Source of the DNA: a virus | Lineage: Duplodnaviria; Heunggongvirae; Uroviricota; Caudoviricetes | Strand: one strand, 5' to 3' | Virus record (IMG/VR): IMGVR_UViG_2703718837_000002 | DNA: 38,688 nucleotides | Shown here: positions 4,207 to 28,029 of the stretch, piece by piece | Numbering within the stretch: position 1 is the stretch's first letter | Layout of the letters: each line of letters opens with the position of its first letter | Position numbers and translations under genes: made by a program | The notes under the pieces: generated by a model | What the model was told of the DNA's origin: nothing | What the model saw: the letters and a program-made list of their open reading frames with translations, nothing else | Databases searched by the model: none

Positions 4207-7194
4207 ATGAGCTTAAGCGATCAGGTGGTAATGGCCACCAGCATAGAAACGCTGATCGAGCTGCTAAAAAACCTGCCCGATTTCGGGCGGGTTTCGTATG
4301 TGGTGACAGCGAAGGGTGACGAGGTAAAAACAGCGTTTGATATCGTCGATGCCTCGGCTCTTTTGGTATCCAATACTCTGGACGGGAAAATTAACCCTGA
4401 CTATCCCCAGGAACTTCAGCCGCGCGACCGGACCCGCGCATCCAGCCTTCTTCAGGTTAACCAGATATCCAAGGATTTGCGGCCAGCTCAGCTTACCGAT
4501 TCCGGTTTATCCAGCCATGGCGCGCCGATAATTGGCGAGGACAATGCCGTTGAGTCAGGTAATGGGCGGACCATGGGGATCATTAAAGCCTATCAGGACG
4601 GTAATGCGGATCGGTATCGGGAGTACCTGATTGAACATGCGACCGAATTCGGCATACGGCCTGAAAAGGTTGAATCAATGACGGCTCCGGTACTGGTGCG
4701 CCGCCGGTTAACTAAGGTTGACCGCGTTCAGTTTGCCAAGGACTCAAATATTTCTGATCTTCAGGAAATGGCAGCCAGTGAAAAGGCTTTTGTTGATGCC
4801 GACAGCATAACACCGGCGATGATGGCGTTGTTTAACCCGTCAGAAAGCGGAGATCTGCTTAGCCGCAGTAATGACGCGTTTATTCGCGGATTCATGACGC
4901 AAGTTGGTGCCACACAGGCTGCTGGCCTTGTAACGGAAGATGGGCGACCAACACGGCAACTTGTAGACCGTATACAAAACGCGATCTTTGCCAAGGCATA
5001 TAAGGATGCGCGCCTGGTAAGGATGGTTGCAGAAGAACCTGATCCGGATATGCGTAATGTTCTGACGGCGCTTAATGCGGCGGCCAATGATTTTGTCCAG
5101 ATGCAGGCTTTATCAGGAGAAGCGCACAAGCAGGCTGTGACAACTATCGTTGATGGTATTGAAACAGCGGATAGCCTCGATAAAAAGGCGCTGGCGGCAT
5201 TGAAAGATGCGGTAGACCTGGTAAGGCAATCGAAGGAGTCAGGCCAACATATTACCGATGTTATTGCTCAGGGGGATATGTTCAGCGAAACAGCCCCGGA
5301 AGTGAAAGCTCTCGCGTTGTTCATCGTCGCGAATAACCGTAGCGCGAAGCGTATGGCCACCGCCTTTAAATTGATGGCTCAACGTATCAATGATGAGTTA
5401 CAGCACCAGGGCCAGGCGCTCGGGGATATGTTTGGCGGCGGCGATGTGTCGTTACAGGATATCCTTCGCCAGGTATCTCAGGAACTGGAAAACGAAGGTA
5501 TGCAAGGGATATCTGGCGGTCTTTTCGAGTCAGCTTCCGGCGGTAGTTACAACGGTGTTGCTCCATATACCAGCTTGCTATTACATCGGGCATCCGGCAT
5601 CAAAGACATTATTCATCTGATCAGGCTGCTATCCCGTACAGATCCCCAGGATGAACAGCTTGTTCAAGTGCTTGCGCATTTTGTTCGAATGCCTGTTGCC
5701 GACGTGAAAAAATGGTGCCGATTATTCGGTATCAGCAATTCGTTACTTCGCGGCTTGTTAAATCACGCATCCTCCCTTGGGCGCGATGGCTTTGACGAGA
5801 TAGCGCAGGCTATAAAAAACGGAGATATGCCACCAGCTATTGACTGGTTTTCCATTCGCCCAACCAGGGTGAAAGCATTCCTTAGCGCGGCGCATTCGGC
5901 ATCACCATTGGCAGAAATGGTTCAGAGGTTGTCGCTCATATTCACAGACCATACCGCGTTGGGTGATCTGACTCTGGACGAGATGAAAGAAGCCTCCATT
6001 CAGTGGTCCGATCAACAAAATGAGGTTAACTCTGACTTCTTGCCAGCATTCAGGAAGGCCGTTAGTAAAGCGGATGATGCCCGTGGAATTCTGAAGGCAT
6101 TTAAGGCATTGCAAAGTCGGGTTAATAAACATGTCGGTGATATCGATGGGGTAACGGCGGAAGGCAGGGATATCCTTAAAGAGCACGGCATAACGCCAGA
6201 GTTTATTGATGAGATCAGGACGGATATGCAGCGTGAGGTCGTATCGTCCCTGCAAATTGTAGCCAGAGCGTTGGCGGATGCTAATCCGAAGAGTGCGGCC
6301 ATTGTTAACCGGGTTATTGGTGATATTGAAGCATCGGAGGGCATGGGGGCGCTGAAACTCTTCCTTTCGCGAGCGTTTAATCCTAACGGCAATATTCTCC
6401 CTGGCATTATTGGTGAGGCTAAAAGGTATGTCAGTGAAGAAGAACTTGAGCAGCTTGACCAACTACTTAAGCGATTCTCATATAACCCGCAGACACGCTG
6501 GCAAATGAATCAGCGAAGTATGGGTTCGGTTCACGAGAAAGTGTTATCTGCCATGAACAGTGCGATCGCAAACTCATCCGTATCTGAAGAAAAAGCTCTT
6601 GAGTGGGCCGACTCTTTTATCACGGAAGAAGTGGAAGAAGCCCGCGCTGGACAGAATGGTGGGATAGACCTGCGCAAGGAACTTGCTGATATTTATCGCC
6701 TGACCGGCGGTAAAATTTCGACCTTATCAAAGGTGGTTCACCACCAGGGAAGGGCATATGCAAATCTTAATGGTGTTGTTGCTGTCAATTTGAACGATGA
6801 AAATGCAAGTGCACTGTGGCACGAGCTGGGTCATCATCTTGAGTACAGTAACCCTGGTTTGTTAGAGAAAGCCCGGTCATTCCTGAAGGCCAATGTTGAA
6901 GGGGATAAGCCATCTTTCGTCAATATCGGTGGGCGTGGCAAGCCTGAATGGTGCTTCAGATCTCGATTGAGTAATATTTATATGGCGAAGGTATACCCGC
7001 CAGCCTCAGTAAGTAACACCGGGAAAATTCGGCAGAAATCACCGACTATTTCCAAAACGTCAGCAACGGAAGTATTCTCTATGGCTCTTCAGTTGTATCA
7101 TGACAAAGAGGCCGCTGCCGCATCACTGATGAATGGTGACGGATTGCTGGAACTGTTATTAGGTGTGGCAAAGGAGCTAAATAATGCAGATTAA
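4207..7194 (+). CDS. ddrB: DdrB, large polyvalent virion protein with a ParB-like N-terminal region and an HEXXH metallopeptidase-like motif
   Basis: 995 aa. The N-terminal motifs ELQPRDR, GAPIIG and VESGNGR are typical of ParB/Srx-like domains. HELGH is encoded at 6820-6834. Assigned by P1 synteny. Confidence 0.8.
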   Translation: MSLSDQVVMATSIETLIELLKNLPDFGRVSYVVTAKGDEVKTAFDIVDASALLVSNTLDGKINPDYPQELQPRDRTRASSLLQVNQISKDLRPAQLTDSGLSSHGAPIIGEDNAVESGNGRTMGIIKAYQDGNADRYREYLIEHATEFGIRPEKVESMTAPVLVRRRLTKVDRVQFAKDSNISDLQEMAASEKAFVDADSITPAMMALFNPSESGDLLSRSNDAFIRGFMTQVGATQAAGLVTEDGRPTRQLVDRIQNAIFAKAYKDARLVRMVAEEPDPDMRNVLTALNAAANDFVQMQALSGEAHKQAVTTIVDGIETADSLDKKALAALKDAVDLVRQSKESGQHITDVIAQGDMFSETAPEVKALALFIVANNRSAKRMATAFKLMAQRINDELQHQGQALGDMFGGGDVSLQDILRQVSQELENEGMQGISGGLFESASGGSYNGVAPYTSLLLHRASGIKDIIHLIRLLSRTDPQDEQLVQVLAHFVRMPVADVKKWCRLFGISNSLLRGLLNHASSLGRDGFDEIAQAIKNGDMPPAIDWFSIRPTRVKAFLSAAHSASPLAEMVQRLSLIFTDHTALGDLTLDEMKEASIQWSDQQNEVNSDFLPAFRKAVSKADDARGILKAFKALQSRVNKHVGDIDGVTAEGRDILKEHGITPEFIDEIRTDMQREVVSSLQIVARALADANPKSAAIVNRVIGDIEASEGMGALKLFLSRAFNPNGNILPGIIGEAKRYVSEEELEQLDQLLKRFSYNPQTRWQMNQRSMGSVHEKVLSAMNSAIANSSVSEEKALEWADSFITEEVEEARAGQNGGIDLRKELADIYRLTGGKISTLSKVVHHQGRAYANLNGVVAVNLNDENASALWHELGHHLEYSNPGLLEKARSFLKANVEGDKPSFVNIGGRGKPEWCFRSRLSNIYMAKVYPPASVSNTGKIRQKSPTISKTSATEVFSMALQLYHDKEAAAASLMNGDGLLELLLGVAKELNNAD

Positions 7195-7492
7195 AATCGC
7201 AGCGCCATTAGGTGGAGATGCCATTATCGAATTTGATGATAATGAAGAAGTTTCCGGGCGTTTAAGCATTATCTCCGGTGACATTACCGAGGACATGATC
7301 GCTGAAGCCATAGCTGGGGCAAATCCCAATAGCTATATGGGATTCGTTAACACCCTTGATGCTCCCGCAAGTGATGTTCTCCGAACGCTGCATCTTTACG
7401 CTGGCTGGTTTGTTGATTGGCCAGCAGTAGATGGTGGCGATGAGGACGACGACGATGATTTTGGTGATCATGTAGACCAGATCGTATATTGA
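7184..7492 (+). CDS. iddB: IddB-like acidic protein
   Basis: 102 aa. It overlaps the ddrB end, has a poly-Asp tail, and is the last gene of the operon before the terminator. Confidence 0.65.
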   Translation: MQIKIAAPLGGDAIIEFDDNEEVSGRLSIISGDITEDMIAEAIAGANPNSYMGFVNTLDAPASDVLRTLHLYAGWFVDWPAVDGGDEDDDDDFGDHVDQIVY

Positions 7493-7496
7493 AGAA

Positions 7497-7523
7497 ATCC
7501 CGCCAATCGGCGGGATTTTTTTT
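7497..7523. terminator. bidirectional intrinsic terminator between iddB and orf260
   Basis: Stem ATCCCGCC-AATC-GGCGGGAT followed by T8, with an A-rich tract on the 5' side. It sits between convergent genes. Confidence 0.75.
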
Positions 7524-8304
7524 AATCGCTTTCCACTTCTTCCGTGGTGTTTTCTTGCAGTTCTGTTAATGCAGCACGACATAGGTTCCGGGCATTGGCT
7601 ATAGCCACACTTTTGACTTCATCCGTCATCGTGCAGGTAATGTACTGATCGAGTTCTTCAGCGCGGATGATGCTTTTGCCAATCAGAAACTGTATTTGCC
7701 ATAGCAGATCGGCATCCATAATCAGAATTTCTGCCGGGCCTTCAGGGCCAGCCGGGAAGGAAACATAAGACTGTTTGCCCAGGCCGACAACTCGACAACT
7801 TGCTTCAAGAATTGCGCGCTTGAGGTCTGACTTTATAACGGAAACAGGTTGATTTTCACCAGTGATTACGCCGTTGACATGGAAAGGCATGTAGCTTGAA
7901 ATACGCTCCACTTTCCACACGCCAGCAAGCGATCCTTCATGCAGCACAATGGGGGTAACCGCGAGTTTCATCTCACCATATAACTGCTGGCAGATAGCTG
8001 GATTGCTGAATACATCTAAAGGCTCACATTCAAACAGCGGCGCAATCTGCATGAGGTCCATCATGGTCATCCCTGGGGTACGAGCAGTAATGAATTTGCG
8101 CATACCAGTATCCATTGCGCTCCAGATTGCTACACCATGCTTTTTGCTCACTTCTTCAGTAAAGCCAAGGTGGCACATGATGGTTTTTTCGATAGCCAGA
8201 GCAGAGATAGAAACCTTTTCGCCAGGTACTCCATCATTATTGATGGTCACTTCGACACTCTGGCCATTACGCAGGCGGTATTGAATTGCTTTAGTATTTT
8301 CCAC
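7522..8304 (-). CDS. hypothetical protein (260 aa), last gene of the ssb operon
   Basis: GTG start with GGAG 9 nt upstream, inside the end of the preceding gene. No motif recognised. Acidic C-terminal tail. Confidence 0.7.
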   Translation of the reverse strand: MENTKAIQYRLRNGQSVEVTINNDGVPGEKVSISALAIEKTIMCHLGFTEEVSKKHGVAIWSAMDTGMRKFITARTPGMTMMDLMQIAPLFECEPLDVFSNPAICQQLYGEMKLAVTPIVLHEGSLAGVWKVERISSYMPFHVNGVITGENQPVSVIKSDLKRAILEASCRVVGLGKQSYVSFPAGPEGPAEILIMDADLLWQIQFLIGKSIIRAEELDQYITCTMTDEVKSVAIANARNLCRAALTELQENTTEEVESD

Positions 8305-8310
8305 GTTAAA

Positions 8311-8988
8311 TCACTCCACTACAAACCAGTCACATGCCAGTAAGTCGCCTACAGAAGGAACCCACGGAACAACTACACCTTGTGCATTTTTTAAGGCGAA
8401 ATAAGCACCATACGGAACGAGGTCGCCGGGGAAATATCCCTTAATGGCTTCCATTCGTGCCGGGTACTGTCCTTCAGGAACCAGCCAGCAGAATTGGTTT
8501 TCGCCGTTCCACCCGCGTCGAGCAACTTTCTTGCCATCCTTCAGCCACATCAGCGCGTCAGAAAAGTCGGCTGCTTCAAGGTCGATTTCTTCTTGTAGAG
8601 TAGCGATACCGCCAGCAGAAATAGTTACGTCCCTGGCTGTAATGAATGTCACCCCATTGTGACCTTCAATGCTGAGCGATACCCCATTTTCGAAGAAGTC
8701 GTTAGTCCGACTAAAGCCTTCTTCAAATGTTTTTTCTGGTGAATAGGACAGAGATCCGTCCTCATAAGCGACCAGATATCCGCCAATTTCTGGTCGGTGT
8801 TTTTGCAAAAACATTTTATCAACATGGACTTTTACCCCTTCTGGCTCAACGACTTCGATGTTGCAAAGAAGGACCACATCCATTAGGGCGATAATTTCGA
8901 TATCTTTGATTTTTGAGGCACGAACTGTTTTATGGCTTTTGTATTTTGGAAGTGCCGTCAAAAGCTCTTTCGTTGTCATGTTATTCAT
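8311..8988 (-). CDS. two-domain protein: unknown N-terminal domain plus C-terminal DUF2829 (Tad2-like) domain
   Basis: Strong SD GAGGAAAG. The C-terminal ~85 aa (FSDALMWLKDGKKVARRGWNG ... VPWVPSVGDLLACDWFVVE) match the DUF2829 signature as I know it (AL..LK.GKKV.R.GWNG ... W.PS..DLLA.DW). Confidence 0.75.
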   Translation of the reverse strand: MNNMTTKELLTALPKYKSHKTVRASKIKDIEIIALMDVVLLCNIEVVEPEGVKVHVDKMFLQKHRPEIGGYLVAYEDGSLSYSPEKTFEEGFSRTNDFFENGVSLSIEGHNGVTFITARDVTISAGGIATLQEEIDLEAADFSDALMWLKDGKKVARRGWNGENQFCWLVPEGQYPARMEAIKGYFPGDLVPYGAYFALKNAQGVVVPWVPSVGDLLACDWFVVE

Positions 8989-9002
8989 AGTCTTTCCTCT
9001 GC

Positions 9003-9185
9003 TTAAAACCTGATGTATTGCGCCTTCAGGTGGGTCAGGAATGTTTTCCCACCAGCGAAAGCAATATCTCGGGGTGTTCTATTCGTTAAAAGCGCGTGCC
9101 ATTGCCAACTTTGGCGTTTTTTAGCGAGTTCGTGCTTTTGTTGGCGTCTGGACCACCGCTTTTCTTTCAGTCGTTTTTTACTCAT
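9003..9185 (-). CDS. small basic protein (60 aa), uncertain
   Basis: ATG 5 nt after the ssb stop with no clear SD, so translational coupling is possible. The product is rich in Lys, Arg and Trp. Confidence 0.4.
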   Translation of the reverse strand: MSKKRLKEKRWSRRQQKHELAKKRQSWQWHALLTNRTPRDIAFAGGKTFLTHLKAQYIRF

Positions 9186-9190
9186 AAACT

Positions 9191-9679
9191 CTAAAACGGA
9201 ATATCGTCGTCAAAGTCCATTGGAGGTTCGTTATTGGCGTTGCTCTGAGGTTTGCCGCCACCGCTGTATTGCTGGTGGTTTTGAGGTTGGTTTGATTGCC
9301 CCCAGCCATTTGAGGACTGTGAATCGTCACGGCGAGCGCCGATCATTTGCATGGTGCCGCCCTGGCTGACGATAATTTCCGTCGTGTAACGTTCTACACC
9401 GGCGTCATCTGTCCACTTACGGGTTTTAAGTTTCCCTTCGATGTAGACCTGAGAACCTTTTCGTAAATACTCACTCGCAATTTCAGCAAGTTTTCCGAAC
9501 AAAACGACTTTATGCCATTCTGTTTGCTCTTTCTGTTGGCCCGTTTGCTTGTCGCGCCATGATTCATTCGTTGCGATGCTGAGTCCTCCGACCGCTCCGC
9601 CATTTGGTATATACCTGATCTCCGGGTCTTGCCCCAGGGTACCAATCAGGATGACTTTGTTTACACCGCGTTGTGCCAC
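9191..9679 (-). CDS. ssb: single-stranded DNA-binding protein
   Basis: Canonical SSB sequence: an N-terminal OB fold ([16 protein letters not shown]), a Gly/Gln-rich linker and the C-terminal DFDDDIPF tip. GTG start. Confidence 0.95.
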
Positions 9680-9698
9680 TTATCTTACCTAATAAAAT

Positions 9699-9715
9699 AA
9701 ATTAATTAGAGCAAT
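9699..9715 (-). promoter_or_regulatory. C1 operator upstream of ssb
   Basis: The minus strand reads ATTGCTCTAATTAATTT, 16 of 17 matches to the C1 operator consensus ATTGCTCTAATAAATTT. It lies 20 bp upstream of the ssb start. Confidence 0.75.
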
Positions 9716-9742
9716 AATGTATATCTTTGAAACGTGGCTAAC

Positions 9743-9761
9743 AAGTGATTTGCATTATCCT
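9743..9761 (+). promoter_or_regulatory. Lpa-type late promoter candidate for lyz
   Basis: AAGTGATTT, then N4, then TATCCT, 88 nt upstream of the lyz ATG. Confidence 0.5.
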
Positions 9762-9848
9762 GTGCCTTCTAAAGGGATCGAGTCAGTCGGTATTGGCTGT
9801 GAATGGGTGTTTGTCCTGGAGCGTAAAAAATTCGCTTATGAGGTCTTT

Positions 9849-10406
9849 ATGAAGGGAAAAACAGCCGCAGGAGGCGGTGCAATTTGCGCTATCGCGATGA
9901 TGATTACCATCGTGATGGGTAATGGCAATGTGCGAACCAACCAGGCGGGGCTTGAGCTTATCGGAAACGCTGAAGGTTGCCGACGTGATCCATACAAGTG
10001 CCCGGCGGGTGTATGGACTGACGGGATCGGTAATACACACGGGGTAACGCCGGGTGTGCGAAAAACAGACCAGCAAATCGCCGCTGATTGGGAAAAGAAT
10101 ATCCTGATCGCTGAACGCTGTATTAATCAGCACTTCCGGGGCAAAGACATGCCCGATAATGCCTTCAGTGCAATGACAAGCGCGGCATTCAATATGGGAT
10201 GCAATAGCTTACGGACCTACTACAGCAAAGCGCGAGGCATGCGAGTAGAAACGTCCATCCACAAGTGGGCGCAGAAAGGGGAATGGGTGAATATGTGTAA
10301 CCATCTCCCTGATTTCGTGAACAGTAACGGCGTCCCCCTGCCCGGGTTAAAGATTCGCCGTGAAAAAGAACGCCAGCTTTGCCTGACGGGGCTGATCAAT
10401 GAATAA
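9849..10406 (+). CDS. lyz: Lyz, SAR-type endolysin (T4-lysozyme family)
   Basis: ATG at 9849 with GAGG 5 nt upstream gives 185 aa. It has an N-terminal weakly hydrophobic signal-anchor-release segment (GGGAICAIAMMITIVMG) and the catalytic-region motif E-x8-D/C-x5-T. Confidence 0.9.
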   Translation: MKGKTAAGGGAICAIAMMITIVMGNGNVRTNQAGLELIGNAEGCRRDPYKCPAGVWTDGIGNTHGVTPGVRKTDQQIAADWEKNILIAERCINQHFRGKDMPDNAFSAMTSAAFNMGCNSLRTYYSKARGMRVETSIHKWAQKGEWVNMCNHLPDFVNSNGVPLPGLKIRREKERQLCLTGLINE

Positions 10407-10660: not shown

Positions 10661-10693
10661 ATTGCTCTAATAAATTTGATTTATTAGAGCAAA
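10661..10693. promoter_or_regulatory. paired inverted C1 operators, left end of immI-like module 1
   Basis: A perfect ATTGCTCTAATAAATTT at 10661-10677, plus an inverted copy. Together they form TTGCTCTAATAAAT-TTG-ATTTATTAGAGCAA, 14-bp perfect arms. Confidence 0.85.
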
Positions 10694-24144: not shown

Positions 24145-24161
24145 ATTGCTCTAATAAATTT
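24145..24161 (+). promoter_or_regulatory. C1 operator, left end of immI-like module 2
   Basis: A perfect ATTGCTCTAATAAATTT. The inverted partner seen in module 1 is degenerate here (TTATTGAAACAA). Confidence 0.85.
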
Positions 24162-27929: not shown

Positions 27930-27946
27930 AGAATTATTAGAGCAAT
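27930..27946 (-). promoter_or_regulatory. C1 operator (immC cluster)
   Basis: The minus strand reads ATTGCTCTAATAATTCT, 15 of 17 matches. Confidence 0.65.
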
Positions 27947-28012
27947 AAATTTTGAGAGAAAAATCCCACTCCACCAGCCAAAAACTGGATTGTTTTTCAT
28001 AGTTGTTTGACA

Positions 28013-28029
28013 ATTGCTCTAATAAATTA
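28013..28029 (+). promoter_or_regulatory. C1 operator overlapping a promoter reading toward coi and c1
   Basis: ATTGCTCTAATAAATTA, 16 of 17 matches. TTGACA lies immediately upstream (28007-28012) and TATAGT at 28028-28033. Confidence 0.8.

Follow-up and report, generated by a model that had tools for sequence, protein, structure and literature searches.

A Tad2 fusion gene in the ssb operon of a P1-type phage-plasmid

We analyzed a 38,688-nt stretch of viral DNA (IMG/VR record IMGVR_UViG_2703718837_000002; hereafter the window, whose numbering applies to all coordinates) and focused on a gene downstream of ssb that encodes a 225-amino-acid (aa) protein ending in a Tad2 (DUF2829) domain. We assign the window to a P1-type phage-plasmid (Punavirus) because positions 7400-9800 are 98.4% identical to Salmonella phage SJ46, 99.0% identical to a 97,938-bp Escherichia coli plasmid, and ~95% identical to phage P1 in an alignment that covers only two-thirds of the length. 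On the minus strand, ssb is followed by a very basic 60-aa open reading frame (ORF), the gene for the 225-aa protein, and isaA, with intergenic gaps of 5, 14, and 6 nt; an initial inspection of the DNA letters (the sequence-only reading) had proposed these ORF coordinates and this tight packing, and both held.

The 225-aa protein consists of an N-terminal domain with a predicted oligonucleotide/oligosaccharide-binding (OB) fold, a linker, and the Tad2 domain. The sequence-only reading had recognized a DUF2829 signature in the last ~85 residues, which the profile search bears out, and had suggested structure prediction for the whole protein. The resulting AlphaFold2 (AF2) model supports the Tad2 fold, with its N-terminal helix and antiparallel sheet, and shows residues 5-97 as folded and beta-rich (predicted local distance difference test, pLDDT, 77-91). 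An extra N-terminal domain, claimed earlier for residues 1-135, is thus indeed folded in the model, but it occupies only about residues 1-97 and is followed by a low-confidence linker (98-137; pLDDT ~33) rather than forming one 135-aa domain. The tail of the phage L decoration protein Dec is disordered in the monomer; homologs of the 225-aa protein, however, bear unrelated sequences at the linker position.

The C-terminal domain retains conserved Tad2 ligand contacts

The assignment of the C-terminal domain to Tad2 is solid at the level of sequence. Pfam PF11195 (Tad2-like) matches residues 141-224 over profile positions 2-73 of 73, with an E-value of 1.6e-22 and a score of 80.3 bits against a cut-off of 25. 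The best sequence matches among solved structures are to ModTad2 (PDB 9eib and 8v3e; E ~1e-20, 45-46% identity, one gap), followed by AcrIIA7/HgmTad2, SPO1 Tad2, and SptTad2. The ModTad2 alignment spans the whole domain and keeps the beta2-beta3 insertion at the same length. ModTad2, like all characterized Tad2 proteins, is a stand-alone protein of ~90-100 aa, whereas in the window Tad2 forms the C-terminal third of 225 aa behind an OB-fold domain and a 40-aa linker.

Yirmiya et al. identified W25, N26, W73, S76, and D79 as the residues of SPO1 Tad2 that contact glycocyclic ADP-ribose (gcADPR), and these align with W160, N161, W209, S212, and D215 of the 225-aa protein. Among 37 full-length homologs, W160, W209, and D215 are invariant and S212 nearly so, while N161 is found in the 225-aa protein and most homologs. 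Characterized Tad2 proteins vary in the Thoeris types that they block: ModTad2 binds the histidine-ADP-ribose (His-ADPR) signal of type II Thoeris and leaves type I unblocked, and others block type I or type IV, or all three types, so the exact ligand of this domain is not assignable from sequence. ModTad2 also binds cyclic UMP (cUMP) and cyclic CMP (cCMP) in a second pocket formed by the beta2-beta3 insertion, where HgmTad2 binds CBASS nucleotides. In related plasmids, Tad2 alleles vary mainly in this beta2-beta3 loop (residues ~166-195; window ~8404-8493), which occurs in three length variants, namely that of the window, one ~17 aa shorter, and one ~8 aa longer; such variation may reflect diversification of specificity.

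The N-terminal domain belongs to a large family related to Dec

Pfam holds no model for the N-terminal domain (N-domain). A Foldseek search gave one specific match, the OB-fold of Dec (PDB 6e3c; E=7e-4, 26% identity), and a comparison of the N-domain profile with Dec yielded an E-value of 5.5e-7 at 24-26% identity, with a common core of P-E-x-G-G-Y-L ... A-F-E-x-x-Y. When we searched 1.84 billion representative proteins with this profile, we recovered 5,117 clusters (at the 50% identity level) at E<=1e-3, and 2,893 at E<=1e-10. The consensus is strongly conserved (LPxYKCHKVVxAxKI ... KHxPxxGGYxVVYEDGYxSYSPAxAFExGY), and its near-invariant residues H19, K20, Y71, Y75, D77, Y79, S81, S83, E89, and Y92 are kept across phages of Escherichia, Klebsiella, Ralstonia, Pseudomonas, Burkholderia, and Caulobacter. 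Dec shares the OB-fold and the sequence core, but it lacks the conserved H-K and Y-x-D-G-Y-x-S-Y-S-P residues of the family and is itself made late, as a trimer that binds the capsid and bears a C-terminal beta-helix spike. The window protein, in contrast, is the product of a putatively early operon and has a sponge domain instead of a conserved spike.

We assessed the company that this domain keeps in the best 139 family members, after setting giant repeat proteins aside; of the 139, 44 stand alone, at 83-130 aa, and the other 95 are longer. The only recurrent partners in a Pfam scan of these 139 were Sequestin (PF21825; 18 proteins), Tad2 (14), Acb4 (PF13876; 6), and the Acb2/Tad1 hairpin (3), and all four partner families are sponges for immune signals. 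A re-scan for three of the sponge families found them in 34 of the 95 longer proteins, including fusions of the N-domain with both Tad2 and Sequestin and with both Acb4 and Sequestin. Tad2 domains 78-85% identical to that of the window are fused to Sequestin in other enterobacterial elements. Known sponge-sponge fusions, such as Acb4-Tad2 of Pasteurella phage Pm86 and Tad2-Sequestin, similarly join Tad2 to a second small phage domain in one polypeptide; they differ in that the partner in the window protein belongs to no Pfam family and is only a candidate sponge.

A 2025 preprint by Tal et al. discovered Sequestin through the logic of its being fused to a sponge, a search limited to Pfam families. 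The N-domain would have escaped that search because it has no Pfam model, and one N-domain-Sequestin fusion stands, without comment, in their Sequestin table. The sponge families listed as of April 2026 are Tad1, Tad2, Acb2, Acb4, Sequestin, and Lockin, plus TadIV-1. Two of these were considered as identities for the N-domain and rejected: hhalign against six Lockin sequences gave a probability of 0.06%, and TadIV-1 is helical.

Family members are found in several genomic settings. Some lie in a lambdoid right-end accessory region or last in an array of small genes, and five metagenomic stand-alone genes lie on short contigs or in arrays of small genes that lack Pfam matches. As a separate observation, several giant proteins, among them P0143 (4559 aa), P0144 (4188 aa), P0150, P0159, and P0175, carry 11-28 partial matches each to the N-domain profile; these cover profile positions ~33-86 or 59-86, and the GGY...SYSP hairpin thus seems to be repeated in very large proteins.

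A putative two-module sponge

The best overall explanation, to which we give a probability of about 60%, is that the 225-aa protein is an early-made two-module sponge in which the Tad2 part sequesters TIR-derived (Toll/interleukin-1 receptor) ADP-ribose (ADPR) signals and the N-module contributes a second binding function. Its production would be early, at times when C1 does not repress the ssb promoter or has ceased to do so upon infection or induction. By analogy with its solved relatives, the C-terminal 88 residues would form a homotetrameric Tad2 sponge with pockets at the protomer interfaces. This module would sequester TIR-made alarm molecules derived from ADP-ribose and keep the host effector switched off; candidate ligands are His-ADPR, as for ModTad2, as well as gcADPR, N7-cyclic ADPR (N7-cADPR), and cyclic nucleotides at the second pocket. 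The N-terminal OB-fold module, held on its variable linker, would add the second function, most likely by binding another immune-signal ligand, and the 60-aa ORF and IsaA would be likely co-transcribed neighbors. A counter-defense role for the 225-aa protein is plausible from its sequence and setting.

Several points weigh against this explanation. The secondary and water-mediated contacts of SPO1 Tad2 are replaced (T78 by G214, T65 by N201, D67 by Q203, and H71 by V207), and ligand specificity cannot be assigned from 45% identity. The bulky N-terminal fusion could hinder formation of the tetramer. A DUF2829 protein was originally described as an anti-CRISPR (AcrIIA7), and Dec, the sole characterized relative of the N-domain, is a capsid decoration protein. 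Among the longer family members, 61 of 95 have extensions without any of the three scored sponge domains. A canonical stand-alone member, gp05 of Ralstonia phage GP4 (91 aa; L017 2986-3261), lies between the portal and major head genes, where it adjoins a gene for a CsrA-like regulator. Co-transcription from Pssb is a step that we infer, and no test of the 225-aa protein turned up in the papers searched.

For the N-domain itself, we tentatively favor a second ligand-binding, sponge-like module, at somewhat less than even odds, because of its fusion pattern, its small stand-alone forms, and the near-invariant polar, aromatic, and basic residues that persist across phages. A wider proposal is equally tentative: the N-domain may define a new and very large phage immune-evasion family (at least 5,000 clusters, in phages of many Proteobacteria), either as an eighth sponge family or as a capsid-targeting module that positions sponges. 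Such a family would have been missed so far because no Pfam model covers it; on this view, Dec would be a diverged relative, either descended from the family or recruited into it. Probability not taken up by the sponge-like reading of the N-domain or by the capsid tether considered next is left for a different accessory role.

Homology to Dec, which binds the capsid through its OB-fold, and the position of the GP4 member among head genes raise the alternative that the N-module is not a second sponge but a Dec-like domain that tethers the Tad2 sponge to procapsids or capsids. Such a tether could bring the sponge to the sites at which TIR proteins that sense capsids fire, or could mask the capsid trigger. 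We consider this unlikely, since the gene sits in the early, C1-repressed ssb operon rather than in a head module, and the parts of Dec that meet the capsid are poorly matched: by our reading of the alignment, Dec contacts K30, Y31, and Y49 fall in stretches that are variable in the family, while contacts Y71 and E73 align to other residues that are family-invariant (D77 and Y79). Dec in turn lacks the near-invariant polar residues of the family, which persist across phages of Escherichia, Ralstonia, Pseudomonas, and Caulobacter whose capsids are presumably different. The linker, which would correspond to the Dec trimer spike, is not conserved, and in stand-alone members of 83-100 aa a spike is absent altogether.

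A different question is whether the Tad2 half of the proposed two-module sponge acts on Thoeris in these hosts at all. Its main targets could instead be cyclic nucleotides bound at the second pocket, such as the cCMP and cUMP of Pycsar or the dinucleotides of CBASS; that pocket takes up cUMP and cCMP in ModTad2 and CBASS nucleotides in HgmTad2. The retained ModTad2-length beta2-beta3 insertion, which builds this pocket, and the concentration of allelic variation in the same loop speak for such targets, but conservation within the domain is highest at the canonical ADPR-pocket residues, and the two kinds of target are not mutually exclusive; we regard an exclusive shift away from Thoeris as quite improbable. 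Very improbable indeed is that the protein is an AcrIIA7-type anti-CRISPR or an accessory "moron" without a counter-defense role: AcrIIA7, itself a DUF2829 protein, is the second-best structural match, and DefenseFinder labels the match "Tad2 AcrIIA7", but type II CRISPR-Cas is, to our knowledge, absent from E. coli and Salmonella, an intact, conserved copy of the gene occurs in 213 of 5,426 complete E. coli genomes, and the ligand-binding residues are retained. Yirmiya et al. also argue that DUF2829 proteins are anti-Thoeris sponges and not anti-CRISPRs.

Distribution and significance

The 213 E. coli genomes carry the gene or a close relative nearly always on plasmids of ~90-100 kb, and the whole gene arrangement is present in 106 of 628 matching PLSDB plasmids. 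RefSeq labels the gene "DUF2829 domain-containing protein". Tad2 sponges are an established phage countermeasure against TIR-based immunity in bacteria. A 2025 preprint reported DefenseFinder "Tad2 AcrIIA7" matches in 56% of phage-plasmids of the P1 type and 93% of those of the D6 type; the presence of Tad2 genes in these elements was thus already known, and a counter-defense role had been suggested by automated screens. We did not find the sequence motifs of the 225-aa protein in the supplementary tables of two large Tad2/sponge screens. What our analysis adds, from sequence comparison, is the membership of the fusion partner in a huge Dec-related family whose recurrent companions are four sponge families.

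The N-domain has a solved relative in Dec, a strongly conserved and probably functional surface, thousands of members, and recurrent fusion partners drawn from four sponge families, and it lends itself to direct testing as a candidate module of immune evasion. If it proves to be a sponge, it would be a major new family in the counter-defense repertoire of phages and would explain a common unannotated gene of many of them. Phage-plasmids of the P1 type occur widely in clinical E. coli, Shigella, and Salmonella, and the locus described here is among the sites at which their cargo varies.

Probable C1 control and gene neighborhood

The features of the locus are collected in Table 1. The sequence-only reading had placed a 16/17 C1 operator ahead of ssb, and the site is there: it reads ATTGCTCTAATTAATTT, with one mismatch to the consensus, and is identical to P1 Ossb/Op21, as are the hexamers of both ssb promoters. 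The sole change relative to P1 in the promoter alignment is position 9736, in a spacer. The 17-bp operator overlaps the ssb promoters as in the C1-controlled P1 operon, a homology that points to repression here as well. A simple sigma-70 scan picked up no site, and it likewise missed the annotated P1 promoters P1ssb and P2ssb. Intrinsic-terminator prediction found none on the minus strand within the gene block, although the same scan missed the hairpin downstream of isaA. RNA folding gives this hairpin a free energy of -17.1 kcal/mol (z -3.3), and it forms a strong terminator on the plus strand, with a T8 tail, and a weaker one on the minus strand. The tight gaps, the identity of operator and promoters, the lack of a detected internal terminator, and the hairpin after isaA suggest that ssb, the 60-aa ORF, the 225-aa gene, and isaA are likely co-transcribed from the C1-controlled promoter.

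Table 1. Features of the ssb-isaA locus and its surroundings in the window
Feature	Position	Strand	Remarks
C1 repressor operator Ossb (formerly Op21)	9699..9715	-	16/17 to consensus; identical to annotated P1 operator
Promoter region P1ssb/P2ssb	9682..9744	-	placed by P1 homology (offset +4198 from P1 locus L002)
ssb, 162 aa, first gene of the operon	9191..9679	-	Pfam SSB E=4.5e-39; homologous to P1 ssb
60-aa very basic ORF, probably coding	9003..9185	-	begins 5 nt past ssb stop
225-aa protein: Dec-like OB domain, linker, and Tad2 domain	8311..8988	-	ribosome-binding site (RBS) GAGGAAAG upstream
N-terminal OB-fold domain, aa 5-97	8698..8976	-	large phage family related to phage L Dec
Variable linker, aa 98-137	8578..8697	-	low confidence, pLDDT ~33
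Tad2 (DUF2829, PF11195) domain, aa 138-225	8314..8577	-	
isaA, 260 aa	7522..8304	-	GTG start 6 nt past Tad2 gene stop
GC-rich hairpin between converging isaA (-) and hxr (+)	7495..7518	.	RNA fold
hxr counterpart	7184..7492	+	correspondence with P1
ddrB counterpart, 995-aa ORF	4207..7194		correspondence with P1

Matches to the C1 consensus with at most three mismatches number 12 in the window, against 0.22 expected. The 11 further operator-like sites, two of them perfect, include 24145-24161 and sites within 27930-28029, and at 10661-10693 an adjacent, partly overlapping pair lies on opposite strands. Multiple C1-like sites are as expected for a P1-type genome.

Comparison with P1, isaA, and a variable cargo site

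P1 and the window share the operator, promoters, ssb, small ORF, and isaA at 94-97% identity. The segment at ~8300-8985 (685 bp), which holds the Tad2 fusion gene, has no P1 counterpart and is slotted between the 60-aa ORF and isaA; the RBS and ATG from which the 225-aa gene starts in the window lead, in P1, directly into isaA ("MTAQNTK..."). GC content gave no clear foreign signature for this cassette. P1 also differs in the isaA-hxr interval, which holds IS1 and isaB there and the hairpin alone in the window. The sequence-only reading had expected gene content unlike that of P1, which is right for the missing IS1 and isaB and for the added Tad2 segment, but hxr and isaA are both present. Its 260-aa protein of unknown kind, without a recognizable motif, has no Pfam or NCBIfam match, as stated, but is identifiable as IsaA, with 245 of 261 residues (94%) identical to P1 IsaA residues 60-320 at the same locus. 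Its remark that the dar region is close by agrees with the adjoining ddrB and hxr counterparts.

IsaA is a narrow family of 20 homologs, nearly all near-identical. Its only PHROG match, phrog_2326, is uninformative on function, the AF2 model is poor (mean pLDDT 49.8), and a Foldseek search of that model against the PDB returned nothing below E=0.3. We rejected the annotations of P1 IsaA as 320 aa and of SJ46 gp048 as 281 aa, which are over-extensions in another frame. Across nine P1-like sequences, the upstream extension frame (window 8989-9161; L002 4784-4963 in P1; L001 4607-4760 in SJ46) contains stops in three, the window included, mostly lacks an ATG, and has its variable sites at its first codon position. 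We take the RBS-preceded ATGs as the true starts. Newer annotations from the Prokaryotic Genome Annotation Pipeline give a 264-aa IsaA and a 225-aa DUF2829 protein, and they call the same 678-nt coding sequence in related plasmids.

The locus is a published variation hot spot of P1-like plasmids, RD-2 (PMC6906374). Alternative cargo in the isaA-hxr interval of P1-like plasmids, replacing IS1 and isaB, includes a gene for a HipA-like kinase, yjjJ (L008 325-1629), and in another plasmid a gene of 364 aa (L009 325-1419). In a P1 CRISPR interference screen, ssb, isaA, isaB, and hxr were all non-essential, as expected for accessory genes. Phage D6 (L003 2767-4499) has, close to cre, a cluster of dut, a DUF2829 gene of 146 aa, and a gene resembling isaA, and related elements carry this same Tad2 domain as a fusion to dUTPase (P0056). 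We read the Tad2 domain and the start of isaA as a unit that recombines between different N-terminal partners, because the D6 Tad2 domain plus the opening 14 codons of isaA is 97% identical in DNA to window 8262-8633. Tad2-like and IsaA-like genes thus adjoin in two different genomic contexts, which hints at a functional link.

The 60-aa ORF is probably coding, as its frame is open in eight of nine P1-like sequences and variation is concentrated at codon position 3. Near-identical homologs precluded a divergence test, and codon-position statistics on the nine sequences were used instead: 12 of the 18 variable columns are third codon positions, 4 are first positions, and 2 are second positions (binomial P ~0.004 by our calculation). 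In one sequence, codon 15 is a stop and 9 nt are deleted in frame. The ORF starts directly behind the ssb stop in P1 and SJ46 (TGAATG), and after a TAG and 5 nt in the window. A search of 5.8 billion proteins returned just two near-identical clusters, with no homologs outside P1-like elements, and Pfam, NCBIfam, and PHROG gave no match. The lysozyme ORF (9717-10406, plus strand) is listed as 229 aa, compared with 185 aa for P1 lyz and 214 aa for SJ46 lys, and its first listed start is probably not the real one.

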